Origin: a virus
Taxonomy: Duplodnaviria; Caudoviricetes
IMG/VR virus record: IMGVR_UViG_3300028027_000073
Location: 1 to 52,362 of that record
Reading direction: 5' to 3' (one strand)
Length of the DNA: 52,362 bases
Shown here one piece after another: positions 5,327 through 52,362 of the stretch. The position numbers and the translations under genes were made by a program. Below the pieces are notes generated by a model. It searched no databases. It was given only the letters and a program-made list of their open reading frames with translations, and was not told the DNA's origin. Each line of letters begins with the position of its first letter. The stretch's first letter is position 1.

Positions 5327-5334
5327 AATTTTCC

Positions 5335-6072: not shown

Positions 6073-6099
6073 AATAACCTTTAGTTATAAGTTTACTTA

Positions 6100-9161: not shown

Positions 9162-9162
9162 G

Positions 9163-9321
9163 TTACATAAATTTATGAGTTAATAGAAATACAATCACAA
9201 AACCTGCTGTTCCTAATAGTATTTGTTCTAAACGTTTGAGTCTTGCATTTATTTGTTCATAGCGTAAAGCACATACTTCTTCGTGTGTACTCAATCTTGA
9301 TTCTACGTCTGACTTCACCAT
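9163..9321 (-). CDS. Small coiled-coil plus TM protein (52 aa)
   Basis: Hand-translated MVKSDVESRLSTHEEVCALRYEQINARLKRLEQILLGTAGFVIVFLLTHKFM; homolog at 46869. Confidence 0.8.
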   Translation of the reverse strand: MVKSDVESRLSTHEEVCALRYEQINARLKRLEQILLGTAGFVIVFLLTHKFM

Positions 9322-9322
9322 C

Positions 9323-9385
9323 TTATCCTTTCGGAGCATTATATAAGTTTATAGGGGGTAGGTATAAATCGTGCCATTCAATCAT
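9323..9385 (-). CDS. Possible 20-aa peptide MIEWHDLYLPPINLYNAPKG
   Basis: ATGA overlap with the upstream stop; fills the intergenic gap; absent in arm B. Confidence 0.35.
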   Translation of the reverse strand: MIEWHDLYLPPINLYNAPKG

Positions 9386-11001: not shown

Positions 11002-11009
11002 GTTTTATC

Positions 11010-12536: not shown

Positions 12537-12538
12537 GA

Positions 12539-13276: not shown

Positions 13277-14388
13277 TATTTGCCTACCTTTCCTACTACA
13301 TAGCAGATTGGTTCTAAAATAGCACGATAAATCATGCCATAATTATCACGTTTTTTACCTCTTTTTTGTTTCCAGATATCAGCAGTCCTATGTCTTGCGA
13401 TATGCTCTAAAACACCCCTTAAAATGCGTTGTAGGGCATTCTTTTTACCACTCTTATAAGCATAGTTTACTAATGGTAAGAATAGAGTGTGATAACCTTT
13501 TTCGTATGCTGGGTCTAAATCTTTAGATTGAGCTAACCAAATAGCGTTACGGAAGCTACCAAAGCCATATTCAGCATTCATAGCTGTACATACAATCTTG
13601 CCACCACCTGATTGAGTTGTTTTTGTAACTTGACCAACTGGAGCACCGTATGCAGCACCCAAGTAAGCTTGTAGTTTTGTGTATGGTTTGTTTTGTTCAA
13701 ATTCGTATCTAGCAATTTGATCTTCAAGAGCTTTTTGTGAGTAGTCTTCTCTAACTTGACCAACATTCATAAGTTGGTTAATATCTTGGAATCTAGCTTG
13801 AGCTAATTGAGGAGCTTGTAATGCAGCTGCTTCTTGTCTAGCACGTTCATTAGCATAGTTTTGATATGCAAGTTCACCCGCTTTGCCAGTCAAAGTTGTA
13901 GCTAAAGTATTAGCGGCTCTATTTTGTAAGTCTGCAGAAACATTAGATCCATAACGACCAGCCATAGATGCTGAACCTTGTGCTTGTTTGATAGCATCAT
14001 TGTAAGCTTGTGTAGCTGTTTGAACAGCTGGTTGCATAGCAGCTTGGAAATATGGGTTAGCACCTAAATATTGACCTTGTACAGTACCTAATTGTTGATT
14101 AAGTGCTGCACCTGTAAGAGGGCTTCCTGCTCTTGCTTGTGCTTCAGCTTGTGCTAATGCAGATTCTGTTTGAGCAGATGGGCTAACATATGTTTGACCA
14201 GCAAAATATTCAGGTGTAGTAGTTTGATATAAGTTTTTAGCTTCAGTTAATCCATACTCTACAAATGGTCTTACAGTAGGATCTAATTCGCTTTTGGTTT
14301 CAGATGTGCCGCCACCACCAGAACCTCCACCACCATAAAATGTAAATGACTGTACTAATTCTTGTACCCAATTGTGTAACTTAAACAT
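13276..14388 (-). CDS. Ejection protein (P22 gp7-like position) with GGG-KIVCT C-terminal domain
   Basis: Short leader then poly-Gly; Gln/Ala-rich core; start matched to the arm B homolog. Confidence 0.75.
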   Translation of the reverse strand: MFKLHNWVQELVQSFTFYGGGGSGGGGTSETKSELDPTVRPFVEYGLTEAKNLYQTTTPEYFAGQTYVSPSAQTESALAQAEAQARAGSPLTGAALNQQLGTVQGQYLGANPYFQAAMQPAVQTATQAYNDAIKQAQGSASMAGRYGSNVSADLQNRAANTLATTLTGKAGELAYQNYANERARQEAAALQAPQLAQARFQDINQLMNVGQVREDYSQKALEDQIARYEFEQNKPYTKLQAYLGAAYGAPVGQVTKTTQSGGGKIVCTAMNAEYGFGSFRNAIWLAQSKDLDPAYEKGYHTLFLPLVNYAYKSGKKNALQRILRGVLEHIARHRTADIWKQKRGKKRDNYGMIYRAILEPICYVVGKVGK

Positions 14389-14398
14389 ATCTAGTTCC

Positions 14399-14797
14399 TT
14401 AAAGTGTATATTCCCATGTTTGAGGTTTAAAACCCATCTGTCTTGCTTTACGTTCCCATCCACGTCTTTCGGAGTTAAACGTAACTTTAGTTTTACCGCC
14501 TTGTTTTGCTATTTGTTGAATCTCTTGAAATGCTTGTGTAAAGAGTGCCTCATCATTAATTAATGACCATGCAGCCCATACATGAAGCCTGTTTCCGATT
14601 GGTTGAAGTACTACGAATCCTACTGGTTTATTGTCTATTATTCCCATAAACAACATAGAACGTTGCTCATAGCAATCACAATATACATCTTCTGGTATAT
14701 ACTCGGTATGACCTTTAGACCTGACTATTTCTAATCCGTGTCTAATGTATTCCCAATGTTGACGTAAATTATCTTTAGGTATGTAATGTAAAATCAC
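14399..14797 (-). CDS. GNAT-fold-like virion assembly protein (P22 gp14/T7 gp13-like position)
   Basis: GFVVL, LHVWAAW, S.RRGW.R....GF; lies between tail and ejection genes. Confidence 0.6.
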   Translation of the reverse strand: MILHYIPKDNLRQHWEYIRHGLEIVRSKGHTEYIPEDVYCDCYEQRSMLFMGIIDNKPVGFVVLQPIGNRLHVWAAWSLINDEALFTQAFQEIQQIAKQGGKTKVTFNSERRGWERKARQMGFKPQTWEYTL

Positions 14798-15588
14798 GCT
14801 ACTATAATATATCCGTATGTTTTATCTGCTGTACTGTTTGCAAAGTGTTTTAATGTTGCACTACCTTTAGTTCTAGCACTTACATATACATTAGTAGATG
14901 CTGAAGTTGATACATAACTCATTGTAGTAATAACGCTTGGTGTAGCTGGTCTTGTTGGACTTGTACCTGCTGCATAATGTTCTATAGACACACCAGTATC
15001 AGATACTTTCCACATAAGTTCAACATAGTCACCTGCTACTAATTCTAAATAAAAGTTTAATGCACCAATAATATGGCTTGGGTCACCACCACCTCTTCTT
15101 GGTGATAAACCAAACCTACTGTTTGATGCTGCAATATCTGTGCCATTTTTTCTAAACCAAACTTCTGCGTCTTGAGAGTCGTTGGTTGTATTCTTAAACT
15201 GTATAGAAAACTCTAAATTATAAAGACCACTATTTCTTACATTAAGCCTAGAACTGTTTGACAAATAAACACCATTAGAAAAGTCAGTAGTGTTAAATGT
15301 AATTGTATAAGCTGCTGTTGTTGATGCAGCAGTCTGGTCAGTTGAGTCTTGAAACGCACCATAAGGAACAGTATCACTACCAGCAGCAGTACTAATAGGT
15401 GTTAGTAGTATTATACTATTATAACCTATTCTTTCATCATATATCGTGGTAGTTGTAGCATTTCCTGTAGCTAAAGTAATTTCACCAGTATTGTTAGATT
15501 TACCTTCTACAAGGTTATTTACTACTTCTGATATTTCACGTGGGTCTGCACCAGCGTAGTTGAGCTTACGGTACATATCACGAGCCAT
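14794..15588 (-). CDS. Tail-associated structural protein
   Basis: Follows the tail hub gene; beta-rich C1q/BclA-like insert (GLYNLEFSIQF, GDYVELMW). Confidence 0.65.
   Translation of the reverse strand: MARDMYRKLNYAGADPREISEVVNNLVEGKSNNTGEITLATGNATTTTIYDERIGYNSIILLTPISTAAGSDTVPYGAFQDSTDQTAASTTAAYTITFNTTDFSNGVYLSNSSRLNVRNSGLYNLEFSIQFKNTTNDSQDAEVWFRKNGTDIAASNSRFGLSPRRGGGDPSHIIGALNFYLELVAGDYVELMWKVSDTGVSIEHYAAGTSPTRPATPSVITTMSYVSTSASTNVYVSARTKGSATLKHFANSTADKTYGYIIVA
14854..14980. repeat. 127-nt exact repeat of the window end
   Basis: Identical to 52236..52362 by direct comparison; identity breaks at 14853/52235. Confidence 0.95.
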
Positions 15589-39114: not shown

Positions 39115-39272
39115 AACCTATATCTGAAATACTAGAAGATGTTTGGAAGGAATTAAAAGAACTTAACGATAGATTTGACGAAAGGGAGAGAGCAAATGGA
39201 AGACCAATTTTACCAGGAAGTGATGCAGGAATTGCACGAGATGGAAACCAAACAACAGGAGAGAATAAATGA
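39099..39272 (+). CDS. Hypothetical protein
   Basis: Similar to 277..474. Confidence 0.5.
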   Translation: MSTELKPISEILEDVWKELKELNDRFDERERANGRPILPGSDAGIARDGNQTTGENK

Positions 39273-39811
39273 GCATTCATAAAAAATTAATGCAAGCAAG
39301 ATTAAAGTTGCAAACAACAGACCTTAAAAAGTCTGGTCATAATAAATTTGCAGGATATAAGTATTTTGAGTTAGGTGATTTTTTACCTACTATTCAAGAA
39401 ATTTCTAATGAGGTGGGTATCTGTGGCACAGTAACATTTTATACAGATATAGCAATTCTTACTATTACAGACATGGATGATGCTACACAGTTTATTGAGT
39501 TTAAATGTCCTATGTCTTCAGCAGCTTTAAAAGGTTGCCATGATGTGCAAAACTTAGGTGCAGTTCAAACATACCTTCGTAGGTATTTATGGACTAATGC
39601 GTTTGAGATAGTAGAACATGACGCAATTGATGCTGCTAAACCTATAGAACCAGAAGAAGTTGAAATGACTGAGTCTCAATTAAGTAAATTTAAAACACAA
39701 TTAGAAGAAGCATTAAAAGAAGGTAAGCTAAAAGAAGCATTCTTTAAACTACCAGAAAATGTTAAAACTCAATTACGGGATTATGCTAATGAACTTAAGA
39801 AGTCTGCATGA
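39269..39811 (+). CDS. ERF-family single-strand annealing protein
   Basis: Near-identical to 458..877 up to EHDAIDA, then a different tail. Confidence 0.85.
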   Translation: MSIHKKLMQARLKLQTTDLKKSGHNKFAGYKYFELGDFLPTIQEISNEVGICGTVTFYTDIAILTITDMDDATQFIEFKCPMSSAALKGCHDVQNLGAVQTYLRRYLWTNAFEIVEHDAIDAAKPIEPEEVEMTESQLSKFKTQLEEALKEGKLKEAFFKLPENVKTQLRDYANELKKSA

Positions 39812-40410
39812 GTCATTTAACCGACAATAGACGTCATAATATTATTACAGCTAGCAATGCTTGGTCTGCTGTGTATGAGAGACAAAAATTATGGCGTCAA
39901 ATGACTTTAAGAGAAGCTCCATTTGAAGGCAATGAAATGACTGAATGGGGTAATCTTAACGAACATCTTGCTATTTGTGAGTTTGAAAAAGCTATGGGAG
40001 AGATTACTGAAACTGGTAATAAGTTAATTGTTCATCCTGATTTACCATTAGGTGCAAGTCCAGATGGATTCTTAAATAGGCTGCCAATAGAAGCAAAGTG
40101 TCCTTATAGCCAAGAGTTTTATGGTATGATTCCAGACCGTTATTATTTCCAAACACAGTTACAAATGGAAGTATGTGGTGCTCCAAGATGTTATTTTGTA
40201 GTGTGGACACCAAAAGGAATTACTATACAAATTATTGAAAGAAGTAAAGAATGGTTTGACTGGTATAAACCTTTAGCGTTAGAATTTATGAAGTTTGTAG
40301 AAGATGATGTAGAGCCTACTCGTTGGAAACGCAAACCCATATTTGATATAGATTTGAAAGAAGATAAATTATTATTTCCAAAGGAGCAACAAGATGGCAT
40401 CAGTAAATAA
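39808..40410 (+). CDS. YqaJ-like exonuclease (different subtype from arm A)
   Basis: ITAS, WG..NE, GASPDG, EAKCP, QTQLQM. Confidence 0.88.
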
Positions 40411-40798
40411 AGCAATTATCGTAGGTAATTTAGGGAAAGACCCAGAGGTTAAATTTTTAACTAATGGTGACGCTGTGTGTAGTTTTAGTATTGCTACTAC
40501 TGACAGTTGGAAAGATAAAGCAGGTCAAAAGCAAGAAAAAACAGAATGGCATAACATTGTTATGTATAGAAAGTTAGCTGAAATTGCTGGTGAGTATCTT
40601 AAAAAAGGCAGTCCAGTATACGTTGAAGGTGCTTTACAAACTCGTAAATGGACTAATAAAGAAGGTCAAGATAAATATACAACTGAAATTGTAGCAAACA
40701 GTATGCAAATGTTAGGCGGTAAAACTTTACAACAAGAACAAAATAATACTAGAAGTGGTCCTGCTATTGAAGGGGCAGATGAGGACGTGCCATTTTAA
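40394..40798 (+). CDS. ssb: Single-stranded DNA-binding protein
   Basis: [38 protein letters not shown]. Confidence 0.95.
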
Positions 40799-40811
40799 AG
40801 CACATCCCCAT
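40779..40811 (-). terminator. 12-bp hairpin at the pqqA 3' end
   Basis: Minus strand ATGGGGATGTGC-9 nt-GCACGTCCTCAT (two G-U pairs). Confidence 0.45.
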
Positions 40812-40822
40812 TAGCATGATAA

Positions 40823-40894
40823 CTATTTGTTCATTACGTACATAGTTACTTCAAAGCCAAAACGCATTTCTGTAGCTGCTGGAGTTGTCCACAT
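40823..40894 (-). CDS. pqqA: Coenzyme PQQ precursor peptide PqqA (MWTTPAATEMRFGFEVTMYVMNK)
   Basis: Hand translation; E-x-x-x-Y core; AAGGA RBS; TATAAT at 40945-40950. Confidence 0.95.
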   Translation of the reverse strand: MWTTPAATEMRFGFEVTMYVMNK

Positions 40895-40997
40895 GGTATT
40901 TATCCTTAAGTAATATATTATGCTTAATTGCACAATATAATGGAATTATACGCTTATGTGGGTTTGCTAGACACCAGATAATCATTAAAGGTAGATA

Positions 40998-41387
40998 ATG
41001 GATATACATATTTCAGAACATGATGTACATTGTATAGCGACTGCTGTTTATACAGAAGTCAACATGCAATCACTAGAAGAAAAACTAGGGGTTATTAATG
41101 TCATTATGAACAGAGTTAGGTCTAAACGATTTGGTCGTGATGTTTGTGAGGTAGTTTATGCTAGGGGACAGTTCATTGGTATAGAAAACATGATGAAAGC
41201 TAAAGAAAAGAACATAGACCAAGAAACACTATTAAAGACTAAGTTACTTGTAATAGATACATTATTCTTTAAAAAGCATGCAAATCCTGTAGGGAATAGT
41301 CTATACTTTCATGACGATAGCGTAGATATGAAATATATCTGGGACAAGAAACCAAACAAAAAAATTGGAAGGATGGTGTTTTACTAA
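40998..41387 (+). CDS. SleB/Hydrolase_2-family cell wall hydrolase
   Basis: Homolog of 2450..2839. Confidence 0.85.
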   Translation: MDIHISEHDVHCIATAVYTEVNMQSLEEKLGVINVIMNRVRSKRFGRDVCEVVYARGQFIGIENMMKAKEKNIDQETLLKTKLLVIDTLFFKKHANPVGNSLYFHDDSVDMKYIWDKKPNKKIGRMVFY

Positions 41388-41632
41388 TGGCTAAAAAAGA
41401 ACCTGTAGCATGGCTTTATGAAGAGTTTGATATTAGGTCAGGTGACCTTAAAGCATCTTATTTGTGGTCGTTTCATCCTAAAGAATTGTCATATTTGAAT
41501 GATTTAAAAGGTTCAACACATCATATAAAAATAACACCATTATTCAGAGGCGAAAAAATAGAAGAATACAAGTCAATGAATAAGTACTCAGAAGAAACAC
41601 AAAGATTAATTGAAAGCAATAATGGACTCTAA
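41387..41632 (+). CDS. Hypothetical protein
   Basis: EPVAWLYEEFD..ITPL. Confidence 0.65.
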   Translation: MAKKEPVAWLYEEFDIRSGDLKASYLWSFHPKELSYLNDLKGSTHHIKITPLFRGEKIEEYKSMNKYSEETQRLIESNNGL

Positions 41633-41768
41633 ACCACTTACCCAAGAAGAAATTATAAAGGTATATAAAGAAGCATTTGGATACGGTAGTCAAGTAATAA
41701 CGATTGACAAGATATTTAAGTTTGCTAGACTTATAGAACAATTGCATGGAGTAAAAGATGTACACTAA
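41622..41768 (+). CDS. Small hypothetical protein (48 aa)
   Basis: Hand-translated MDSKPLTQEEI...FARLIEQLHGV; overlaps both neighbours. Confidence 0.6.
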   Translation: MDSKPLTQEEIIKVYKEAFGYGSQVITIDKIFKFARLIEQLHGVKDVH

Positions 41769-42021
41769 ACTAGACGACCAAAGACAAGCAAAGTTTGTTA
41801 TAAACTATATTACTGCACATCCTGGTTGCAGCATTAAACAAATTGTGCAAGAATGTGTCATTTCAAGGTCAAGGTTAAAATACCTAGAAAGTCAAGAATA
41901 TTTGATTTTGCCTAAATGGACTTATAGCAATGAACTAGATAAACGATTTAAGAATAGAAAATACGTATCTGTAACTGTAGGTAGGGAGTATGGAAAATGG
42001 GACGAGCAGAAAAGGTATTAG
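41758..42021 (+). CDS. HTH-like hypothetical protein
   Basis: YITAHPGCSIKQI; GGAG RBS. Confidence 0.55.
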   Translation: MYTKLDDQRQAKFVINYITAHPGCSIKQIVQECVISRSRLKYLESQEYLILPKWTYSNELDKRFKNRKYVSVTVGREYGKWDEQKRY

Positions 42022-42113
42022 ATGTAGTAGTATGGTTGTTGATTGTTGGTGGTATGGGTTGGTTTGCTTATGGTTGTTATGAACTTATTGATTTATTTTT
42101 TCTAAGGGGATAG
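41997..42113 (+). CDS. Small membrane protein (38 aa)
   Basis: MGRAEKVLDVVVWLLIVGGMGWFAYGCYELIDLFFLRG. Confidence 0.55.
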   Translation: MGRAEKVLDVVVWLLIVGGMGWFAYGCYELIDLFFLRG

Positions 42114-42115
42114 AT

Positions 42116-42391
42116 ATGGTAGATATGGTAAATAGACCTCCACATTATTTAGTGGGCGGAATTGAAGCAATAGATGTAATTAAGAGTCGTTTAACTAAAG
42201 AAGAATACATTGGGTATCTTAAAGGCTGTAAGCTCAAGTATGACTTACGCTATCCGTTTAAAGATAATCCACAACAAGATTTAGACAAGTCTGATTGGTA
42301 TAAAAATAAGCTATTAGAAGTTACTAAAGACGAAGATGCTGTAAACCCACCTGAAGTAGAAGCTATCTTAGAAAGATTTGATGATGAATAA
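42116..42391 (+). CDS. DUF3310/SaV-like protein
   Basis: Homolog of 4390..4668. Confidence 0.85.
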   Translation: MVDMVNRPPHYLVGGIEAIDVIKSRLTKEEYIGYLKGCKLKYDLRYPFKDNPQQDLDKSDWYKNKLLEVTKDEDAVNPPEVEAILERFDDE

Positions 42392-42539
42392 AACCTATTG
42401 GGTATTTATTGTGGTATTAGCTGCATTAGCTATTTGGGGAACAGAAAGAGCTATGGCTCAAACTACGACTATACTAGCACCAGATGGTTCTGTAACTGTC
42501 TGTCAGGTTGGTAGTAATGGTGTGATTATTTGTGTCTAA
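42384..42539 (+). CDS. Small secreted peptide with a Cys pair (51 aa)
   Basis: Signal peptide ending AMA; mature QTTTILAPDGSVTVCQVGSNGVIICV. Confidence 0.65.
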   Translation: MNKTYWVFIVVLAALAIWGTERAMAQTTTILAPDGSVTVCQVGSNGVIICV

Positions 42540-42888
42540 TGGTATGCGTAATAGTCAAGCTACTCATGTAGATTTTGGCTTTTTGCGTGGAGCAATAAAA
42601 AGTAATCCTAAAGTAATACCTGTAAATTTAGACATGGTATATGAACATAAGGGTCATTTTTTATTTGCAGAATGGAAACGTGAAAACGAACAAATTAGTG
42701 AAGGGCAAAAGATACTATTAAGAAACCTAGCAAAACTACATACAGTATTGCTAATTATTGGACATAGTGATGAAACATCAACCGAAGTAAAAGATTTTTA
42801 TTGGGTTCGTGGGCTATATATGACTCATGTTGGAAAGGGTATAGACTCATTAAAAGATTATATAGATGATTGGTGGAACGAATATTAA
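42532..42888 (+). CDS. Putative PD-(D/E)XK nuclease-like protein
   Basis: NLDMVYE....LFAEWK, SEGQKILL. Confidence 0.55.
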   Translation: MSNGMRNSQATHVDFGFLRGAIKSNPKVIPVNLDMVYEHKGHFLFAEWKRENEQISEGQKILLRNLAKLHTVLLIIGHSDETSTEVKDFYWVRGLYMTHVGKGIDSLKDYIDDWWNEY

Positions 42889-43061
42889 TCATCCATAGGT
42901 GTTAATTCACCATAGATAGCTAGTTCTTCACCACTTATTTCTATCATGCTATCGTCATCTAATGTGATAACTATAGTGCTATCGCCATGTAATGCTTCAC
43001 AAGATACAATCACTCTTCCTAACATGTGATTACAGATAATTTCTACTTCTGACCGTTGCAT
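42885..43061 (-). CDS. Small acidic hypothetical protein
   Basis: Homolog of 5159..5326. Confidence 0.7.
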   Translation of the reverse strand: MQRSEVEIICNHMLGRVIVSCEALHGDSTIVITLDDDSMIEISGEELAIYGELTPMDD

Positions 43062-43068
43062 AATTGTC

Positions 43069-43773
43069 CTAAGAAACATGACCATTCCAACGCCCATTTT
43101 CTTTTAATACCATAGGCATTAGCTTTGGTTGACCGTTAATAATAACTCCACAACCTACAATGAAACGACTCTTAAAGTTTTTAGCATAGTCAAATGCCAT
43201 AGACTTTTGATGTATTAAACATCCTACTTGCATACCCCAAATAAGAGCATCTGGGTTACTGTAATAACCAATACTGAATTTAGTATGATAGTGACCCTGC
43301 ACCGTATTCATTCCATACTGCTGGGCTACCTTTAAAACGTCAGCAGATAAACCATGAGTAAAGAAACATCTAGAGTTATCACTTAAGGTTATGGTGTGGT
43401 CATCTACCCATTCCCAGCCTTTGCCAACGCCTAAGAACTCATTGTAATGCTTTAGATATGCTTTAGGCATACCATACTTTAATGCTCTACGATAAACTAA
43501 AGAGCTATGGTTAGAATGAACTAAAACCATCTTAGGGAATATCTTTTCTAGTTCTTTGACATGCTTCTTAGACTCTTCTAATTCATGTCCAGCAGAGTAT
43601 AAGTCTGGGTTATGTTCGTGCATAGAGATAGCGTGTTGGTCTAGCTCATCACCTATGTTGACTATATGGTCAAACTTGTATTTAGTCTTTAATGCTTTGA
43701 GAAACGCAAATGCGTCAGGATGATGATATGGAATATGTAGGTCAGATATGACTAGAACTGATTTATATTTCAA
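43069..43773 (-). CDS. Calcineurin-like metallophosphoesterase
   Basis: SDLH.P, GDE.D, SNH, THG, GHYH motifs. Confidence 0.9.
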   Translation of the reverse strand: MKYKSVLVISDLHIPYHHPDAFAFLKALKTKYKFDHIVNIGDELDQHAISMHEHNPDLYSAGHELEESKKHVKELEKIFPKMVLVHSNHSSLVYRRALKYGMPKAYLKHYNEFLGVGKGWEWVDDHTITLSDNSRCFFTHGLSADVLKVAQQYGMNTVQGHYHTKFSIGYYSNPDALIWGMQVGCLIHQKSMAFDYAKNFKSRFIVGCGVIINGQPKLMPMVLKENGRWNGHVS

Positions 43774-43801
43774 ACTACTCTCCTAGGGTTAAGATGCTTT
43801 A

Positions 43802-44251
43802 TTATAACCCTAAAAACAATTTGCGTTCATCTAATCTTCTGTTTTGTAAACCTTTTAATATCTTACCACCAGCTTTACAATATTTAACTAACGACTCCAT
43901 AGCCGCTTCTTTATCGCCACGTAACAACGCTTGACGGATGGTTGAACGCTGAAAGCATCCAAGACCCAGATTAAAGCAAAAGCTGACAAGAGCGTCAAAC
44001 TCATGTTGTCGTAAAGGCACGTTAGGTAACATCTTATGTACTCCCAACTCAAAACGGTTGAGGTCTCGTTTAAGAATTGCATCTATTTCCTCGTTAGTAA
44101 ATGTTTTGTTCCATTCAGGCGGTAATGTTTTGCCATCACCAATCAAATGACCAATTCCTACTGTCCACAGTTTTGCGGGACACTGGTATGGTTTGTTTCT
44201 AACACCTTCGTGATGACGTAGTAACTTGATAAGTTTATCAGATACTTTCAC
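43802..44251 (-). CDS. Endolysin, GH24 lysozyme
   Basis: Homolog of 6100..6549. Confidence 0.92.
   Translation of the reverse strand: MKVSDKLIKLLRHHEGVRNKPYQCPAKLWTVGIGHLIGDGKTLPPEWNKTFTNEEIDAILKRDLNRFELGVHKMLPNVPLRQHEFDALVSFCFNLGLGCFQRSTIRQALLRGDKEAAMESLVKYCKAGGKILKGLQNRRLDERKLFLGL
43888..44082 (-). CDS. Candidate overprinted membrane protein nested in the lysozyme gene
   Basis: 62/64 identical to 6186..6380; same RBS and stop. Confidence 0.45.
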   Translation of the reverse strand: MQFLNETSTVLSWEYIRCYLTCLYDNMSLTLLSAFALIWVLDAFSVQPSVKRCYVAIKKRLWSR

Positions 44252-44735
44252 GTTTCTTTTCCCATGTACGAGAGCCGAAATAGAAACCAATAATAGATGC
44301 AGTAATAGCCATTTCATCTGAACCAAATACTGCCTCTGAAGCTGTTACAAAATCTACACCTGTCCACATAGCCCAACCTAATGAGATAAGATTAATAAGC
44401 ACTAACTCACCTACAAAGATAAATGCTACTACAGGTCTAACCATAGCGTTCCAGTTTTTAACTGTAGAACTTGCATTTTCTACTAACTTCTTATCATGGT
44501 CGTATAATGCTTCACGTTCTTGTGCGTATGTTTGCACTTCTATTTGGTCTAGCTTAATAGCTTCTATTTTTTCTTGTGATATAAAACCTGCTTTAGCTAA
44601 TTCTAATTCACGTTCTGTTTGTAGTTTAGCCATTTCTCTTTCATGCTTTTGGTCACCCTTTTGCTGAAAGAAACCTAAAATACTAGGTAAACCTGAGGTA
44701 GCAAAACCTAATATGCCTGATAAAATACTTAACAT
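44238..44735 (-). CDS. Holin (3TM-like)
   Basis: Homolog of 6536..7033. Confidence 0.75.
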   Translation of the reverse strand: MLSILSGILGFATSGLPSILGFFQQKGDQKHEREMAKLQTERELELAKAGFISQEKIEAIKLDQIEVQTYAQEREALYDHDKKLVENASSTVKNWNAMVRPVVAFIFVGELVLINLISLGWAMWTGVDFVTASEAVFGSDEMAITASIIGFYFGSRTWEKKRESI

Positions 44736-45095
44736 CTATAACTCCTTTGGGTCAAAGCCATACATTTTGGCTACACGTTTTTGTAATTTAAGAAACAAGC
44801 CTTTATGACTCGTGTACTGTTCTGTTTTTGGTGAAACTGTATATACACACATATGCAATATTTCATGACAGAGTGTAATTAACACAGGATATAAGTGAGA
44901 GTGTCTTGCAGTAGATATAGTAATGACATGTGGTTCACCTTGTTCTGGTGGTTGATATTCTCCACATATAGTATCGTCATGCAATACTATGAAGTCTACT
45001 TTAGATGCAGGTGGTAGTTTGTATTCATCAAATATAGGCATCTCTATAATTGCACTATAGAGGTTAGCTATGTTATTTTCTGTAATGAATGTCAT
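44736..45095 (-). CDS. Small zincin-like metallopeptidase
   Basis: HEILH; homolog of 7034..7393. Confidence 0.65.
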   Translation of the reverse strand: MTFITENNIANLYSAIIEMPIFDEYKLPPASKVDFIVLHDDTICGEYQPPEQGEPHVITISTARHSHLYPVLITLCHEILHMCVYTVSPKTEQYTSHKGLFLKLQKRVAKMYGFDPKEL

Positions 45096-45499
45096 TTTGA
45101 TAATGGGTTCATTGTGCTACGTTTAACAGTATTTAGTTTATCATCCATTGCATTTACGGTTGCTTCTAATTCTTTACGTAGTCCTGATACCATAGCAGAA
45201 GTCTCACGTGAGTTGGCAATAGCGTCTGAAGACTTTTCACTAGCTTTCATTATAGACTCTGATAGCTGATATTGTCTTTCATTAATAGCTTTAACTTGTA
45301 TCTCTAAACCATTTAACTTAGACTCTATAGGAGCTAAGTCTAAACTGTCAACAGCTTCAATTGCCGTAACCATCTTGTTGTAAAAAGTTATGCCTGCGTA
45401 TGCCGAGCCAGCCACTATTGGCAATGCTATTAAAATCAACTTCAGAAGTGCCGAGCTGGATAAGCTCAAGTTGAAGGTTTTGATTTTTTCCGAACTCAT
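45092..45499 (-). CDS. Membrane-anchored coiled-coil protein
   Basis: Homolog of 7390..7797. Confidence 0.8.
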   Translation of the reverse strand: MSSEKIKTFNLSLSSSALLKLILIALPIVAGSAYAGITFYNKMVTAIEAVDSLDLAPIESKLNGLEIQVKAINERQYQLSESIMKASEKSSDAIANSRETSAMVSGLRKELEATVNAMDDKLNTVKRSTMNPLSK

Positions 45500-46427
45500 T
45501 GTTTATCTCCGTATCAAATTTGAAAGCATCTGTTAATTCAATTTGCTGTATAATAGGTTTGTTAAGTATTTCTAGTGAAAGAACTATTCCAAAACCATGT
45601 ACAAGCTCCTTACCTTTTGGCACGTCAAGTTTAGGACTATCCTTGCTATCATTCTTTTGTTCAGCCTTTGGTGGGTCTTTTGGGCTGTCTTCTTTTGCTT
45701 TTGGCTCGCTTTTAGCTTCCTGTTTTGGCTGTTCAACCTTAATGGGAGGAGGGCTAGATAAAACAGGCTCACCAGGGCTATTTGTAGGTAGCCCAGCAGG
45801 AGGTGGTGGAGCTGCAACAGGTGGTGGGTTATTTACAGGGTTAAGGGGTGAGCTAGGGCTAACTGGAGAACTCACGTTGGTGACGTTTGTAGCACTCTTA
45901 ACACATGTATTATTTGTTTCTACCCATGCTCCCCATACATCATTACCATAAGGGTCAGGACAAGATGAATTTCTAGTTTCTGTAACTGAACCTACATAGT
46001 CTGCTTGACAGGCTAATTGTCTAGTTTCAGTACTTGCTTGACACGTTGGAGGGTCTTGCGTGCAATTGTTGCTAGTTTCTGTCCAAGGTGACCAAGAGTT
46101 TGAAGAACAACTATAAGTCCTGCTTTGATTAATAGCACCGCTATAATGAGGTAACGTACAAGCTGTGGTTTGATTTTCAACCAAAGGAGAACAAGTAGGT
46201 GCTTGATACGCACCGCAAATTGGGTCACTTGGGTTATAAGATACGCACCAATAGTCTTTAAGTGCAATTTGTGGGTCAATGCCATTACATACGAGAGAAT
46301 CTGGAAGCATATAGCCTTCAGGCGTTGGAGTATAGTTGCAATACCAAGCATAAGCATTATTTCCTTGTAGGGATAGAAGTAGTAATAGGCTCGTCAAGAA
46401 CAAGCGGTATCGTGTATGTATCGCCAT
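45357..46427 (-). CDS. Secreted Cys-rich protein
   Basis: Homolog of 7655..8728. Confidence 0.8.
   Translation of the reverse strand: MAIHTRYRLFLTSLLLLLSLQGNNAYAWYCNYTPTPEGYMLPDSLVCNGIDPQIALKDYWCVSYNPSDPICGAYQAPTCSPLVENQTTACTLPHYSGAINQSRTYSCSSNSWSPWTETSNNCTQDPPTCQASTETRQLACQADYVGSVTETRNSSCPDPYGNDVWGAWVETNNTCVKSATNVTNVSSPVSPSSPLNPVNNPPPVAAPPPPAGLPTNSPGEPVLSSPPPIKVEQPKQEAKSEPKAKEDSPKDPPKAEQKNDSKDSPKLDVPKGKELVHGFGIVLSLEILNKPIIQQIELTDAFKFDTEINNEFGKNQNLQLELIQLGTSEVDFNSIANSGWLGIRRHNFLQQDGYGN
46013..46357 (-). CDS. Candidate overprinted cationic amphipathic protein (114 aa)
   Basis: Homolog of 8311..8655; TAATG coupling with AAGGA upstream. Confidence 0.5.
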   Translation of the reverse strand: MLMLGIATILQRLKAICFQILSYVMALTHKLHLKTIGAYLITQVTQFAVRIKHLLVLLWLKIKPQLVRYLIIAVLLIKAGLIVVLQTLGHLGQKLATIARKTLQRVKQVLKLDN

Positions 46428-46869
46428 ATAGTTTCTTAAATATAGAAGGGTTACGTTCATACCAGCCACGTTTAGCAGCATCACCTATAGAACCGTTTAT
46501 AGGGCATGGTGAACCTGACTGTATCATGGCTTCAAATACTCTATCATCTTGACAAAGGATAGATACTGCTGCAACTTTAAGACCTAAGTCATTAAGAGTT
46601 TTAGCTAATTTAATACGTTCACAATTAACGTCTTTATAGCCAGAGCCACCACTTACGCCAAACAATGTACTAGATACAGAACCAGTAACAGGAACAATAC
46701 AAACGTCTTGGCTAAAAGCACTTATAGAAGGGCTAATGGCACTTGGTGGTGGTTGACCTTTGTAGTTGATAGTAGTTGTATCTGCTGCTCTAGCATCCAT
46801 AGATAATGCTAATAACATACCTATTGACATACCTACGAGTAATGCTATTAAGTTTCTTAATGCTTGCAT
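46357..46869 (-). CDS. Secreted protein with four Cys
   Basis: Homolog of 8655..9161. Confidence 0.85.
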   Translation of the reverse strand: MQALRNLIALLVGMSIGMLLALSMDARAADTTTINYKGQPPPSAISPSISAFSQDVCIVPVTGSVSSTLFGVSGGSGYKDVNCERIKLAKTLNDLGLKVAAVSILCQDDRVFEAMIQSGSPCPINGSIGDAAKRGWYERNPSIFKKLYGDTYTIPLVLDEPITTSIPTRK

Positions 46870-47027
46870 TATTTCATTCCATTGGTTAGTAGATAAACAA
46901 TAACGAAACCTGCTGTGCCTAATAAGATTTGTTCTAGGCGTTTAAGTCTTGCGTTTATTTGCTCATAACGTAACGCACATACTTCTTCATGCGTACTTAA
47001 ACGTGCTTCTACGTCTGTCTTGACCAT
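46869..47027 (-). CDS. Small coiled-coil plus TM protein (52 aa)
   Basis: Homolog of 9163..9321. Confidence 0.8.
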   Translation of the reverse strand: MVKTDVEARLSTHEEVCALRYEQINARLKRLEQILLGTAGFVIVYLLTNGMK

Positions 47028-47036
47028 TACTGTTCC

Positions 47037-48458
47037 TTACTGTGAGAGAAGACCAGGATACTGGTTATTTAATTCAAATTGTTGTTCTATAAGTTGTCTT
47101 GCTAAAGTATTTCTAGCATTATTATCTAAAAACATACCTAAACCTTGATTTTGTTTTTTGTATAGTTCTAATGCTGCTTTACCTTTAATTTTAGGAGAGT
47201 CTAATAATGATTGTGCAAAACCAAGAGCTGCACCAGGGATACCGCCTAAAGCTCCACCAGCACCAGTTTTTGCAGTAGCACCAAGACCCATTAAATCTCT
47301 ATTTTCAATACGACCTACAGCTTTTTGAAGATTAGGTTGCAGTTCTTTTAATGAACCATATTGTGCATTAATAGCTTTAAGTTCTGGCATAAATCCTTCT
47401 AGTGATGTTTTTGCTACATCTGCCATAGCTCTATAAGCATCTTCTTTTGCAATGGATGGTTTTGTAGGTGCTCTTCCAAAATCAATACGTTTATAAGCGT
47501 CTGATTTAAAATCTTGAAGTTGTTGTGGTGTTACAGAAGTAATTTTATTTTGTTTTAAGTATGTTTTAAACTGCTTTTCAATATCATTAATTTCTTTAAT
47601 ATCTTGTGCTGCTTCAATTTTAAAACCACCTGATTTTTTCTTAACATCTTTAAGACTTTCTAATACTTTTGTAGCTGGAATTTTAATGTTTTGGTCGGTA
47701 GCGTTAGTAATTAAATTATCCATTTTATCGCCAAGGTCAGTAAGTTTAGATTGAACTTTACCTAATCCTGAATAATCTAATGGTATTTGATTTTTAAGTG
47801 CAGTTTCAGTTATTGATGCTCTGTCTGCTGGAGATAAAGTAGTACCCCATTTAGCTGCACTTTCATACATCATAGGTGCTACAGTTTTAGGAATTACTTT
47901 TGATGCACCATACATAGTAGTATTAGCTGCTAGATTTAATGGGTCAATTGCTGTTCCTGCTTTAGCAACCTGTTCTAATCCAGCAGATACTTTTGTTCCT
48001 AATTTAGATAATGATGCAACTTTAGCAGCACCAGAAGCTCCACCTGTAACAAACATAGATATATCACTTAATATACTTGCTGGATTGTTTTGCAATTCTT
48101 TTAAAAAAGCATCTTTACTACCATATTTATTAGAGTAATAATCACCTAAAGCATCTGCATATTTTTCATGAGATTGCACACCATCTGTAGCTTTTTCTGC
48201 AATACCCAATGCTAAATTACCAATACCTTTTAGTGTTTGAATTGGTTGTGTAATTGCACCAATTACATTTTTACCTTCTTCAACAATGCTTCCAGGAAGA
48301 TTTTTTAATGCTTCTTTTCCTGAAAATTGAAACTTAGATGCTTCTTGTTGTTTAGCAGCTTGGTATGCTTGAGCAATAGTTTCAAACTCAGGTGTTCCTT
48401 GTTTGTCTTGATTTTTAATAATCCATTGTGCGTAATCTGAAGCTGAACTAGCCATCAT
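47037..48458 (-). CDS. Putative DNA ejection protein
   Basis: Positional equivalent of 9382..11001; only patchy similarity (P...L.DIS). Confidence 0.65.
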   Translation of the reverse strand: MMASSASDYAQWIIKNQDKQGTPEFETIAQAYQAAKQQEASKFQFSGKEALKNLPGSIVEEGKNVIGAITQPIQTLKGIGNLALGIAEKATDGVQSHEKYADALGDYYSNKYGSKDAFLKELQNNPASILSDISMFVTGGASGAAKVASLSKLGTKVSAGLEQVAKAGTAIDPLNLAANTTMYGASKVIPKTVAPMMYESAAKWGTTLSPADRASITETALKNQIPLDYSGLGKVQSKLTDLGDKMDNLITNATDQNIKIPATKVLESLKDVKKKSGGFKIEAAQDIKEINDIEKQFKTYLKQNKITSVTPQQLQDFKSDAYKRIDFGRAPTKPSIAKEDAYRAMADVAKTSLEGFMPELKAINAQYGSLKELQPNLQKAVGRIENRDLMGLGATAKTGAGGALGGIPGAALGFAQSLLDSPKIKGKAALELYKKQNQGLGMFLDNNARNTLARQLIEQQFELNNQYPGLLSQ

Positions 48459-48474
48459 ATATCCTTATTGAGGT

Positions 48475-49566
48475 TTATTTTCTATTTAAAATTTGGTCTG
48501 CTTGATTAAATATTGCTTGATTTGGGTTATTAGCACCACCTCTATTTTGTGTATTAGCTGTAAGCTCATCAAATCTTTTCTTAACGTTATCGCTAACTGC
48601 TTGACCAAGTGAGTTATCATAATTAGCAAGACCTTCGTAACTAAATGTACCTGATTGAATATTTTTTCTAGCCCAATCAGAAAGTTTAGCATTACGAATT
48701 GCATTAGCTTCTGCAATTTGAACCATAACATCTCTACCTTCTTTAGAAGTTGCAAGACTTGGAAACGCAGCTTTATACGCACCAAACTCTAAGTCAGAAG
48801 TAGAACCACTACCAGGTGTTCTAATTTCTGTAGCACCTTTAGTAGCAATAGCATCAATAACTTGATTAACATTAGCAGTTGGAGTATTAATTCCTAAAAA
48901 GTTTTGTAAGTTAGCAGTTAATTTAATTGCACCACTACCTTGTTGATTTCCAATTAATGAGCTAATAGTTCTTGTGTTATTTGCAATACTTCTAGCAGAA
49001 TTAGTACTTCCAACCAACCCTTCTAATGTACCTTTATCAACATCAAGAAGAACCTTATTAGGGTTAGGCATTTGATTAGTAATATTAGTTTTAGGAGCTT
49101 TAAGATTAGCCATTTTTGTAGCCCAATCTTGAAATGAACCTGTAAATCCTTGAGTTTTAGCATACTCATATTCACGAACATCATTAGGAACTACTTTTAA
49201 ACGGTCTAATTCAGCGTCTCTAAGTTCTTTTTGAATTTTAAGTTTATTCATTTCATTTTCTGTAGCTTGTGTATATGGCGTTTGTGCAGCTTGCATACCA
49301 CCTAAATATGATTTACCAAGAATAGCACCTAAGCCAATATTTTGGTTTTTAGGTTGTGCTAAATATGTTGCACCTGCACCTAAAATGCCAGATAGTAAAG
49401 ATTGATTTCTAAGTTTATCTTGTTGAGCTTGATTTAATAAGCCAGGAACTGCAGGAGTTTCTCCTTGAGCAGGTGTCCCAGTTAAGTAATCAGGAAGTCT
49501 AGCTCCAAATATATTCATACCACTAAACAAATTTCCTAAACCACTATTTGTGTCAAATAATGCCAT
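48475..49566 (-). CDS. Putative DNA ejection protein
   Basis: Positional equivalent of 11010..12536; REYEYAK.QG, RTPGSGSTSDLE. Confidence 0.65.
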   Translation of the reverse strand: MALFDTNSGLGNLFSGMNIFGARLPDYLTGTPAQGETPAVPGLLNQAQQDKLRNQSLLSGILGAGATYLAQPKNQNIGLGAILGKSYLGGMQAAQTPYTQATENEMNKLKIQKELRDAELDRLKVVPNDVREYEYAKTQGFTGSFQDWATKMANLKAPKTNITNQMPNPNKVLLDVDKGTLEGLVGSTNSARSIANNTRTISSLIGNQQGSGAIKLTANLQNFLGINTPTANVNQVIDAIATKGATEIRTPGSGSTSDLEFGAYKAAFPSLATSKEGRDVMVQIAEANAIRNAKLSDWARKNIQSGTFSYEGLANYDNSLGQAVSDNVKKRFDELTANTQNRGGANNPNQAIFNQADQILNRK

Positions 49567-49567
49567 T

Positions 49568-50275
49568 TTATCTTCCTCTAAATCCTGTTGTTTGCAATTG
49601 TTGTTGTAATCTTAAAAGTTCTTCTTCTGTTAAAGGTATAGTTGTATTTAAGTTTGGTAAACCTATTTCATTACCCCTTTGTTGTAATGGATTAGGTGCA
49701 ACATTTTGTAAAGTAGATGATGGGTTAGTATTAAAGTTAGGAGCCACAAGATTAGGATTACCTTGTCTAACTCCAGTTTGAGCAGATGTATCTATTGGAG
49801 TTCTTGGAGGATTAGCAGCTTCATAACCTTTCATGCCTAAACCTAACTTATCCATAGTAGACATATTATTAAAACCTTCTTTAATATTGCCACCTATATT
49901 TCCAAATGTATCAGTAATATTTGACCCTAATGTTTCTAATGCAGATGGTGGAGTAAAGTTAAGTCCTGTACCAATATTAGTGGCAGCATTACGTAATGCG
50001 TCAGCACCTGTTACAAAACTTGCACCTGAAGCTGCTGGAGCAGAAGATAATAGTGATGAAGCTATTTGACCGTTAGAGCCCACAAGACCTGATACTCCTG
50101 CTGTCCCTGCTCCAGTACCGCCTGCACCGCCTGCAAATCCACTACCAATGCTACCAGCACCGCCAAATAAACCACCAGTAGCACCGCCAAGTAATGCACC
50201 CATAAATGGATTTTTACCCATAGCAGCAGATGTTGCTGCACCAATACCAGCACCTATTAATAGAGGTGGTCCCAT
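49568..50275 (-). CDS. Gly/Ala-rich putative ejection protein
   Basis: Homolog of 12539..13276 without the N-terminal extension. Confidence 0.65.
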   Translation of the reverse strand: MGPPLLIGAGIGAATSAAMGKNPFMGALLGGATGGLFGGAGSIGSGFAGGAGGTGAGTAGVSGLVGSNGQIASSLLSSAPAASGASFVTGADALRNAATNIGTGLNFTPPSALETLGSNITDTFGNIGGNIKEGFNNMSTMDKLGLGMKGYEAANPPRTPIDTSAQTGVRQGNPNLVAPNFNTNPSSTLQNVAPNPLQQRGNEIGLPNLNTTIPLTEEELLRLQQQLQTTGFRGR

Positions 50276-50276
50276 A

Positions 50277-51386
50277 TTATTTACCTACCTTACCTGCTAC
50301 ATAGCAAATTGGTTCAATGATTGCACGATAGATACGACCTAATGTATCTCTACGTTTACCACGCATTTCTTTCCATAAGTCAGCAGTTCTATGTCTTGCA
50401 ATATGTTCTGAAACTTTACGAACAAGTTTACGAACAAATGTTTGTTTATCACTAAATGCAAACGCAACAACTGGTAAGAATAATTTATGGTATCCTTTTT
50501 CAATTGTTTTAGCATTAGGCATATTAGCTGAATGTTGTAACCAGATAGCTTGTCTAAAGCTACCAAATCCGTATGCTTTGTTCATTGCTGTGCATACTAT
50601 CTTACCACCACCAGACTGAGTAGTAGTAGATACTGAGCCTGTAGGAGCACCATAAGCTGCACCAAGATAAGAAGATAGTTTTTGATATGGTTTGTTTTGT
50701 TCAAAGTTAAATCTATCAATATCAGCTTGTAATGCTGTTTTTTGATAATCTTCTTGAGTCTTACCTACATTCAGAAGTTGTTGAATGTCACCATAATCAG
50801 CAGCAGCTAATGCAGGAGCACCCATAGAAGCAGCATCTTGTCTGCCACGTTCAGTAGCGTAATTAGTATAAGCTAATTCACCATACTTATTAGCTAGTGT
50901 ATTAGATAATGTATTAGCAGCACGATTTTGAATATCAGCAGAAACACCAGAGCCATAACGACCAGCTCTAGATGCACCAGATTGTGCAGCCATAATAGCA
51001 TCATTATAATTTTGTGTAGCACCTTGTGCAGCACCTGCTAGAGCTTGGTTAAAGTATGGGTTGTTTTGTAAATAAGCACCACCAATAACATCTTGTTGCT
51101 GACGTTGAGCTGCAGGAAGTAAAGGATTTCCAGCTAATGCACGATTTTGAGCAGATTGTAATGCTGTTTGTGTTTGTGCAGAAGGACCTACATAAGTTTG
51201 ACCACCATAGTATTGTGGTGTATCTGTTTGATAAAGACTTTTAGCTTCATTAAGACCATATTCAACAAATGGTCTAACAGTAGGGTCTAATTGATTTTGA
51301 GTTTGAGATGAGCCACCTCCACCACCACCTTTGTAGAATGTAAAGTTGTCTACTAAATTAAATAGCCAGTTATTAAGATTAATCAT
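50277..51386 (-). CDS. Ejection protein (gp7-like position) with GGG-KIVCT domain
   Basis: Homolog of 13276..14388. Confidence 0.78.
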   Translation of the reverse strand: MINLNNWLFNLVDNFTFYKGGGGGGSSQTQNQLDPTVRPFVEYGLNEAKSLYQTDTPQYYGGQTYVGPSAQTQTALQSAQNRALAGNPLLPAAQRQQQDVIGGAYLQNNPYFNQALAGAAQGATQNYNDAIMAAQSGASRAGRYGSGVSADIQNRAANTLSNTLANKYGELAYTNYATERGRQDAASMGAPALAAADYGDIQQLLNVGKTQEDYQKTALQADIDRFNFEQNKPYQKLSSYLGAAYGAPTGSVSTTTQSGGGKIVCTAMNKAYGFGSFRQAIWLQHSANMPNAKTIEKGYHKLFLPVVAFAFSDKQTFVRKLVRKVSEHIARHRTADLWKEMRGKRRDTLGRIYRAIIEPICYVAGKVGK

Positions 51387-51793
51387 GTTATTCGTTTCTC
51401 CACTATAATGTATCTGTTTTCAAATCCGTAAGCACGCTTCCAAAGCCTAGCTACTGCTTCAAATGCTGCTCCCTGTATCTTTGTGCCACCATTGGCTTTA
51501 ACCCATAATTCAAATTCACTAAAACCTTGCTTATCTGTTTTGCCACCAATAGCTGTTATAAATGCTACTCTGTCGTTAGGATAGTTAATCCACTCTATGG
51601 TCATAGCACATTTAATTATTAAATCTTCTTCTGTACCTACACACAATACTTGTCTACCTTGTGCAAGCAATACTTTAAGTTGGTCAAGGTCATACTCACC
51701 ACCAGAATGAGCCATAGCTCTATCTAGCATGATTTCTACTTTGTCCCATGTTTGTTGGATGTGTGATGTAGGAACTACATAAAACTTTAGCAC
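51383..51793 (-). CDS. GNAT-fold-like virion assembly protein (extra copy)
   Basis: YPNDRVAFITAIGG, ARLWKR.YGF. Confidence 0.55.
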   Translation of the reverse strand: MLKFYVVPTSHIQQTWDKVEIMLDRAMAHSGGEYDLDQLKVLLAQGRQVLCVGTEEDLIIKCAMTIEWINYPNDRVAFITAIGGKTDKQGFSEFELWVKANGGTKIQGAAFEAVARLWKRAYGFENRYIIVEKRIT

Positions 51794-52176
51794 TCAAACC
51801 TCCATGTATATGGTTTAAATCCTAGTTTAGGTGCAATTTTTTCAAAGCCTTTACGATAAGAACTAAATGTTATTTCTTTAGCGTTCATCTTATGTGCTAT
51901 TTCTACTATCTCTGTTAAACCTTCTGATAGTATGTCATGTGAGTTACTGTAAGCAGCCCATACATGAAGTGAGTTATTTATAAGTTGCGTTATAAGATAG
52001 CCTATAAAGTAACCGTCTTTAATACCTAAATATAGTTGAGCTTTTCCTACTTTAATATCACAATAGGCATCTTCTGGTATCCAATCACCACCTAGTTCGG
52101 ATATTTCACCTAAACTTGGTTTTATTTGGTTCCAGACTTGTTTTAATTCGTTTGGATTTATGTATTTTAATTGCAT
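51787..52176 (-). CDS. GNAT-fold-like virion assembly protein
   Basis: Homolog of 14399..14797 (IPED.Y.D, LHVWAA, ITF.S.R.G, GFKP.TW). Confidence 0.6.
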   Translation of the reverse strand: MQLKYINPNELKQVWNQIKPSLGEISELGGDWIPEDAYCDIKVGKAQLYLGIKDGYFIGYLITQLINNSLHVWAAYSNSHDILSEGLTEIVEIAHKMNAKEITFSSYRKGFEKIAPKLGFKPYTWRFEC

Positions 52177-52362
52177 TATGCTACTATAATATATCCGTAT
52201 GTTTTATCTGCTGTATTGTTTGCAAAATGTTTTAGTGTTGCACTACCTTTAGTTCTAGCACTTACATATACATTAGTAGATGCTGAAGTTGATACATAAC
52301 TCATTGTAGTAATAACGCTTGGTGTAGCTGGTCTTGTTGGACTTGTACCTGCTGCATAATGT
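52176..52362 (-). CDS. 3' end of a tail-associated gene (partial; equals the end of 14794..15588)
   Basis: Near-identical to 14794..14980. Confidence 0.85.
   Translation of the reverse strand, partial: HYAAGTSPTRPATPSVITTMSYVSTSASTNVYVSARTKGSATLKHFANNTADKTYGYIIVA
52236..52362. repeat. 127-nt exact repeat of 14854..14980
   Basis: Direct comparison. Confidence 0.95.

Follow-up and report, generated by a model that had tools for sequence, protein, structure and literature searches.

The window, which is the whole stretch of viral DNA analysed here, corresponds to one entire IMG/VR virus record and is 52,362 bases long. It contains two copies of pqqA, one in each of two regions of related gene content: the gene order of positions 39154–52362 (arm B) is repeated, in mosaic-like fashion, at 323–14980 (arm A). 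PqqA is a ribosomally made peptide; its residues Glu15 and Tyr19 are cross-linked and excised to give one molecule of PQQ, and the peptide is consumed rather than recycled. Across the whole window, a degenerate pattern for the peptide core matches at the two pqqA sites only (40823–40894 and 1933–2004). Both arms have the same order of genes, namely Erf, a YqaJ/RecE-type exonuclease, SSB, pqqA in antisense orientation, and a cell-wall hydrolase (PF07486). The genes at and around the two sites are as follows.

40823–40894, minus strand: pqqA, arm B allele; 23 codons and TAG; the peptide is the commonest Methylophilaceae PqqA
1933–2004, minus strand: pqqA, arm A allele; 23 codons and TAA; S4 and S6
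40394–40798, plus strand: canonical 134-aa SSB (phrog_44), arm B; convergent with pqqA
1681–1911, plus strand: short 76-aa SSB (phrog_18154/7364), arm A; the common neighbour of pqqA in the group
40998–41387, plus strand: cell-wall hydrolase (PF07486), arm B; divergent from pqqA and homologous to 2450–2839 in arm A
2450–2839, plus strand: cell-wall hydrolase, arm A copy; homologue of the arm B hydrolase
2121–2450, plus strand: 109-aa ORF (orf109) without a family match; found in arm-A-type contexts only, between pqqA and the hydrolase gene

The arm B gene (reverse strand, 40823–40894) translates as MWTTPAATEMRFGFEVTMYVMNK, followed by TAG, and the arm A gene (1933–2004, minus strand) as MWTSPSATEMRFGFEVTMYVMNK, followed by TAA. 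Both peptides score above the curated Pfam cut-off (PF08042; 40.3 and 38.8 bits, cut-off 21.1) and that of NCBIfam (TIGR02107; 38.8 and 34.0 bits, cut-off 20), so that these ORFs are not products of chance. The Glu-x3-Tyr pair (E15, Y19) is kept in both arms. Each gene also has the attributes expected of a small gene: an ATG start, an in-frame stop, and AAGGA or AAGGAG 6–8 nt upstream. Compared codon by codon, the two alleles differ by two replacements (codon 4, S/T; codon 6, S/A) and by four silent codons (7, 8, 20 and 23), and the stop codon differs as well. This bears out the initial annotation, which had described differences at two leader residues, silent sites and the stop codon around an invariant core. 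By the Nei–Gojobori method, sd is 5.0 and nd 2.0, with pS = 0.375 and pN = 0.036; a binomial calculation by hand gives p ~0.004 for at least five of seven changes falling on the 19% of sites that are synonymous.

Nucleotide homology between the arms around pqqA is confined to 1890–2016 and 40777–40907, which are 80% identical. The 43 nt of homology past the pqqA stop codon consist of the tail codons of the SSB gene and a hairpin that is discussed below. It had been proposed that pqqA was kept while both of its flanks were replaced. On the SSB side this is correct: the two SSBs belong to different PHROG families and have just 7 of 12 residues in common, at the C-terminus, and the exonucleases are only 31% identical. 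The hydrolase side, in contrast, has an inserted ORF (2121–2450 in arm A) and a diverged intergenic region, after which synteny resumes, with 73% identity in the hydrolase gene. Among viral contexts of pqqA, the canonical SSB adjoins the gene in 2 of 134, and the short 76-aa SSB in 28.

Over their full length, the two arms form a mosaic of islands with 65–98% identity, between which lie stretches without nucleotide homology. The genes for capsid, portal and terminase occur once in the window, at 26–31.6 kb. Among IMG/VR contigs, the capsid protein has 484 relatives. The long relatives measure 36.4–39.0 kb; the complete ones measure 37.0–39.0 kb and have one pqqA each, and two have exact terminal overlaps of 127 nt. 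Given this genome size and the single pqqA of complete relatives, the two arms are unlikely to belong to one and the same genome. Most likely, the window comprises ~1.35–1.4 unit genomes, and its arms are two related, co-occurring phage variants joined in assembly; the assembler would have walked round a circular or permuted genome and then into the second variant. Arm A versus arm B is still valid as a comparison of two related phages. The mosaic also includes another replacement by an unrelated gene: at corresponding positions, arm A encodes an RNase H-fold/PolB-exonuclease-like protein (5335–6072, minus strand; PF13482) and arm B a calcineurin-like metallophosphoesterase (43069–43773, minus strand; PF00149).

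The 11 long capsid relatives permit a view of how regularly the gene occurs. It is present, in one copy each, in 8 of them, including all 6 that are at least 90% complete. The other three are fragments of 67–82% completeness that also lack Erf and the hydrolase; as both neighbouring genes are missing too, counting them as true absences was rejected. In all ten members of the group (the eight relatives and the two arms), pqqA lies antisense at the same site, between the Erf–exonuclease–SSB module and either the hydrolase gene or orf109.

Beyond this group, a scan of IMG/VR with the core pattern identifies at least 120 contigs with pqqA, and all matches listed are short intact ORFs. A second pattern, anchored on the leader only and therefore blind to the core, retrieves 119 viral copies. 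All are 23 aa long and all have E-x3-Y; the exact core is present in 111, and the remaining 8 have the conservative changes M18L, F12Y or V16I. There are no frameshifts or premature stops among these 119 leader-anchored copies. Neither the sporadic nor the pseudogenised occurrence that the initial annotation had named as fatal to its view was found, and its view of pqqA as a gene stably kept by this group of phages, and not recent host debris, is upheld by the near-complete relatives (6/6), the constant position (10/10) and the intact copies (119/119). As a separate observation, the leader is of Methylococcales, Methylophaga or Burkholderiales type, and not of Methylophilaceae type, in about 15 of 126 viral pqqA ORFs (examples are L025, L059, L065, L073, L077, L098, L100, L107 and L116). 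This suggests that phages of other methylotrophs, or mis-sorted host fragments, also carry pqqA.

The search proposed at the outset, tBLASTn of the peptide against viral sequences, was also run on 50,697 phage records, of which 12 were returned: P19250A, Venkman, MEP301, MEP401, MEP402, four Melnitz records, one Manatee Spring genome and, as weak matches, two Acinetobacter phages. The ORFs translated from the returned records are intact. Every cultured Methylophilales phage lineage that this search returned has the gene, and five unrelated cultured phage lineages carry it. According to a 2023 paper, Venkman, MEP301 and Melnitz were the only earlier isolates for OM43, and all three are among the matches. 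In P19250A, an intact pqqA (locus L003, 2501–2572) encodes a peptide identical to that of arm B. Most of the records have no annotation at the site, and the GenBank entries that leave pqqA out include P19250A, Venkman, MEP301 and MEP401 (locus L349, 1018–1089, for MEP401). In Melnitz (locus L348, 2495–2569) and in the Manatee Spring genome, a 'hypothetical protein' has been called over it on the opposite strand. The Melnitz gene lies directly before a tRNA-Leu gene.

The pattern of substitution points to purifying selection on the peptide, as had been supposed. Within the ten capsid-defined group members, pN/pS is 0.065 for codons 2–23, and over the different sets it ranges from 0.06 to 0.26. 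When only codons left unconstrained by the search pattern are considered, the ratio comes to 0.26 in the core-anchored viral set (leader and tail codons) and to 0.058 in the leader-anchored one (core and tail codons); in a viral set that is filtered on some residues it is 0.20. A collection of 112 viral pqqA ORFs contains 101 distinct nucleotide haplotypes and 40 peptides. Variation in the peptide concerns residues 4, 6, 7 and 21, and the identical positions vary in hosts. The initial annotation had drawn its evidence for selection from the contrast between the two arms. The changes between them are indeed mostly synonymous, but the alleles may have come separately from hosts: they are alike at 64 of 72 nt and each is closer to a host allele, so that the contrast between A and B alone is no proof of selection inside the phage.

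This leads to the pqqA genes of the hosts. With one genome per species, the matches listed for the core pattern are mostly from methylotrophs (Methylophilaceae, Methylococcales, Methylophaga). All 81 Methylophilaceae genomes sampled have matches, between 1 and 12 each with a median of 4, and all six genomes of 1.3 Mb have three matches. In Ca. Methylopumilus universalis (1.27 Mb), for example, three stand-alone pqqA genes are located near 416 kb, 457 kb and 1186 kb, and the pqqBCDE operon at ~576–580 kb has no adjoining pqqA; the paralogs differ mostly at silent sites. Since host copies thus occur without pqqB after them, pqqB was rejected as a marker for separating host from viral loci. The phage genes are not linked to pqqBCDE, and neither are the Ca. 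Methylopumilus copies, so that such linkage is no defining trait of PqqA in this host family. With host PqqB–E as queries, tblastn retrieves nothing from the window or from 165 viral loci, nor from 4 complete relatives, where the best E is 0.37.

The comparison with host paralogs that had been suggested shows that the allele of either arm resembles some host allele more than the two arms resemble each other. Arm B pqqA is identical to a Methylopumilus copy at 70 of 72 nt, and to another host allele at all 69 coding nt. Arm A pqqA matches, at 69 of 72 nt, a rare class of host paralogs that likewise encode the S4/S6 peptide and occur in 6 of 361 genomes. In the phage group, pqqA alleles are 0–6 nt from the nearest host allele. 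Among 157 viral alleles in all, 7 agree with a host allele throughout the 69 coding nt. More generally, nearest-allele distances are mostly 2–8 differences from virus to host and mostly 0–4 from host to host, but a gene of 72 nt is too short for such distances to distinguish phage lineages of long standing from captures that were repeated. Between them, the window's alleles mirror two host paralog classes; at 72 nt, divergence in place, separate capture and gene conversion are likewise indistinguishable. Homology between phage and host ends ~15–45 nt upstream of the ORF and a few nt downstream of it. In a first sample, 31 of 99 viral haplotypes had S6 and none of the 51 from hosts did. The idea that S4/S6 is phage-specific and proves evolution within phages was nevertheless rejected, as 361 Methylophilaceae genomes include 23 with S6 alleles and 6 with the exact leader of arm A. 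No window-like prophages were found around the arm-A-type host copies.

Several candidate signals for expression accompany the two phage genes.

40903–40907, minus strand: Shine–Dalgarno-like AAGGA, 8 nt before the arm B start codon
2011–2016, minus strand: Shine–Dalgarno-like AAGGAG, before the arm A start codon
40945–40950, minus strand: putative −10-like TATAAT, oriented for pqqA in arm B, without a good −35
2049–2077, minus strand: putative promoter-like TTGCTT-17 nt-CATAAT, oriented for pqqA in arm A
40781–40809, minus strand: 3′ stem-loop in pqqA-sense RNA, arm B; z −3.3, with 0 of 200 shuffles folding as well
1894–1921, minus strand: 3′ stem-loop in pqqA-sense RNA, arm A; z −4.6, with 0 of 200 shuffles folding as well

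Upstream of the ORF, homology across unrelated viral contexts has a median length of 11 nt. Of the 21 upstream regions of arm B type that were aligned, 14 have TATAAT without a mismatch, and TTGCTT-17-CATAAT is common to the arm-A-type contexts L096, L119, L121, L006 and L053. These −10-like hexamers sit in the short gap between pqqA and the divergent hydrolase gene or orf109. Consensus scans of both arms gave neither a sigma-70 promoter nor an intrinsic terminator for pqqA; expression from a promoter of its own would rest on the elements just described.

Downstream, the 3′ arm of the hairpin coincides in both arms with the last codons of the convergent SSB gene (..EDVPF). The hairpin is the RNAalifold consensus of 18 sequences and has 10 pairs, without compensatory pairs in the MAFFT columns of these 18 sequences. 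After the register has been corrected by hand (a shift of one column), there is one compensatory pair, G-C in 3 and T-A in 15 related sequences. Every one-sided change keeps the pairing, as G-U, only if the RNA is of pqqA sense; in SSB-sense RNA the outcome would be an A-C mismatch. As no U-run follows the hairpin, it is read, with modest confidence, as a predicted 3′ end or stabiliser of pqqA-sense RNA. Rfam and tRNA scans of the whole window returned no matches, so that the conserved block is not explained by a known RNA gene.

Contigs from RNA libraries of four lake metatranscriptome runs (two studies) bridge the SSB gene and pqqA, and also pqqA and the hydrolase gene; these contigs convey neither strand nor level, may include DNA, and have gaps in cover to which no meaning attaches. 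At 40792–40914, the summed depth of pqqA words in the lake RNA contigs is in the hundreds to thousands, with neighbouring phage genes in single or double digits. Most contigs behind the deepest pqqA words run on into different surroundings, those of host copies or of further phages, which makes this depth a weak measure that does not rank genes.

The flanks of pqqA reassort independently. Two viral sequences (G003 and G008) combine the short SSB of arm A type with a right flank of arm B type, and two others (L045 and L125) combine an exonuclease of arm B type (95%) with the short SSB. The latter combination implies a swap of the SSB cassette that is bounded by the end of the exonuclease gene and by the SSB tail and hairpin next to pqqA. 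Among 5611 pairs of viral contexts, 4816 share the pqqA island only, 445 share one flank and 321 share both. These data are compatible with the further suggestion that the pqqA block anchors module exchange, with breakpoints viewed at pqqA only.

Taken together, we consider it likely that pqqA in the window is a functional, host-derived auxiliary metabolic gene (AMG) that supplies a consumed PQQ precursor to the host pathway. The gene resides in a bona fide phage genome, with Erf, exonuclease and SSB on one side, the hydrolase on the other, and capsid, portal and terminase in the same record. It has close host homologues, since the arm B peptide is the commonest host PqqA and 69–70 of 72 nt match host alleles. 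The proposed arrangement is a free-standing minigene, with a ribosome-binding site, 23 codons, a 3′ stem-loop and probably its own promoter, set antisense in the early recombination module of a ~37–39 kb phage of freshwater Methylophilaceae. Phage PqqA would be processed by host PqqBCDE; because the phage is devoid of any enzymes for PQQ synthesis, the peptide would have to take this route. In LD28 and OM43, methylotrophs that abound in lakes and coastal seas, carbon and energy enter through PQQ-dependent methanol dehydrogenase. An additional source of peptide may benefit the phage, in that it would keep PQQ, and hence this dehydrogenase and the energy it provides, available during an infection in which the host's own transcription of pqqA would fail. 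Two considerations temper this scheme. PQQ is not necessarily limiting within one cycle of infection, and repeated re-acquisition, instead of prolonged selection in phages, could help to retain the gene, given that alleles in the phage group are so close (0–6 nt) to the nearest host allele.

The same closeness to host DNA invites explanations in which the encoded peptide matters less. One of these, a neutral and recently captured host fragment that happens to be present in both variants, would account for the near-identity of phage and host alleles. Such debris would hardly occupy one position in all ten group members and be present in all six complete relatives, nor would it be free of broken copies (0 of 119), recur in five unrelated cultured phage lineages and come without any flanking host DNA (4816 of the 5611 context pairs share just the pqqA island); the idea is largely refuted and scarcely credible. 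It is rather more plausible, yet still unlikely, that the locus serves recombination first and metabolism second. A block of ~130 nt (SSB tail and hairpin, pqqA, ribosome-binding site) would then persist mainly through its near-identity among phages and with several host loci, acting as a portable crossover site for the Erf/exonuclease system; it would serve both module swaps and phage–host exchange, and conversion from functional host copies would keep the peptide intact. That pqqA lies within a recombination module, and that the arm alleles are nearer to host alleles (69/72 and 70/72) than to each other (64/72), fits this idea, as do the 7 of 157 viral alleles that equal a host allele over the coding 69 nt, the reassorted flanks (G003, G008; with L045 and L125 bounding the SSB swap) and the pairs with flank homology, which share one flank (445) more often than both (321). 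Nonetheless, pqqA is kept in phages where it does not adjoin recombination genes, next to a tRNA gene in Melnitz and next to hypothetical and structural genes in MEP401, and its orientation and neighbours vary widely among viral contexts. Conversion alone would not explain a conserved ribosome-binding site, hairpin and −10 element either, and a constrained gene of 72 nt is in any case expected to be only a few synonymous changes away from some of the 128 host alleles sampled.

A different role for the peptide itself, as a decoy or regulator that competes for host PqqD/PqqE or alters PQQ synthesis or signalling instead of feeding PQQ, is improbable. Although it would suit a phage that has the peptide and none of the enzymes, and a peptide whose variation is concentrated at leader residues 4, 6 and 7, these variable positions are the same as in host paralogs. 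A decoy would be expected to lose its reactive residues or to diverge, whereas the Glu and Tyr that become cross-linked are kept, together with the core, in all 119 copies (8 with conservative changes), and the arm B peptide equals the commonest host peptide; both points argue against a decoy. Returning to the metabolic interpretation, its most far-reaching version, which we regard as tentative and somewhat doubtful, is that pqqA is a hallmark AMG of essentially all Methylophilaceae phage lineages, matched to host paralogs by ongoing conversion, with the block of ribosome-binding site, ORF and hairpin doubling as a portable homology patch. If this holds, the hallmark would span phages with short and with long tails, Zobellviridae and T4-like myoviruses, from the sea as well as from fresh water; pqqA would be the smallest AMG, encoding a consumed substrate rather than an enzyme; and neighbouring modules such as the SSB cassette would be swapped via the homology patch.

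There are familiar parallels for such a gene. In the case of cyanophage AMGs of the psbA type and of phage 'morons', the phage carries a fast-consumed part of an energy pathway of the host, and the host provides the rest; the idea of a self-contained unit, inserted between phage genes in opposite orientation, is common to them and to pqqA as well. The product of phage pqqA differs in being a 23-aa substrate that is consumed stoichiometrically, and neither a protein subunit nor an enzyme. The likeness to morons extends to a promoter and a terminator of its own only as far as the putative elements listed above can be taken as such. The stand-alone pqqA paralogs of Methylophilaceae offer a closer comparison. 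They encode a 23-aa peptide like those in the window (the arm B type being the commonest and the arm A type present in 6 of 361 genomes), and in hosts and phages alike each copy is a small single gene that has a ribosome-binding site to itself and no linkage to pqqBCDE. The host copies differ in having G+C-rich terminator hairpins with T-runs, and unrelated flanks, whereas the phage copy stands antisense between phage genes and has a hairpin built from SSB tail codons.

Phage-encoded pqqA has been known since 2020, and the present data correct and extend the literature. Coutinho et al. 2020 (PMC7678222) reported PqqA together with methanol dehydrogenase in VP_266, a T4-like Lake Baikal virus of Methylophilaceae, and they interpret the viral PqqA as an AMG that boosts methanol oxidation. 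VP_266 and the window phage are alike in that a virus of freshwater Methylophilaceae encodes the PQQ precursor. They differ in that VP_266 is T4-like and also has methanol dehydrogenase, while in the window phage, of ~37–39 kb, pqqA alone was found when pqqB–E were searched for. The same paper states that phage P19250A encodes none of those AMGs; for pqqA this is wrong, as tblastn locates the intact, unannotated gene. A 2026 article (PMC13188868) lists viral pqqA, pqqD and pqqE among phosphorus-cycling AMGs of reservoir sediments. There, too, pqqA is virus-encoded in metagenomes, but it is an item in a list that is framed as phosphate solubilisation, and host lineage, conservation and context of viral pqqA are not given in the relevant part of that text. 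The Baikal paper and the 2026 list are the only literature on phage pqqA that was found. No paper was found on the spread of pqqA over cultured Methylophilales phages (supplements, which may list it, were outside the search), and the word 'pqqA' has 0 occurrences in the OM43 phage papers searched.

As an AMG, pqqA is of an unusual kind, for it would supply a stoichiometrically consumed precursor and not an enzyme. The idea lends itself to direct testing in phage–host pairs already cultured (P19250A with LD28; Venkman, MEP301, MEP401 and Melnitz with OM43). A gene of 23 codons is skipped by gene callers, and once recognised it could mark the host of methylotroph phages. In the window, spurious ORFs overlap both copies: one of 52 aa in arm B (40851–41009, minus strand) is on the pqqA strand in a different frame, and one of 83 aa (1892–2143, plus strand) runs antisense to arm A pqqA. 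The latter gives rise to false 'protein' tblastn matches at every host pqqA locus.
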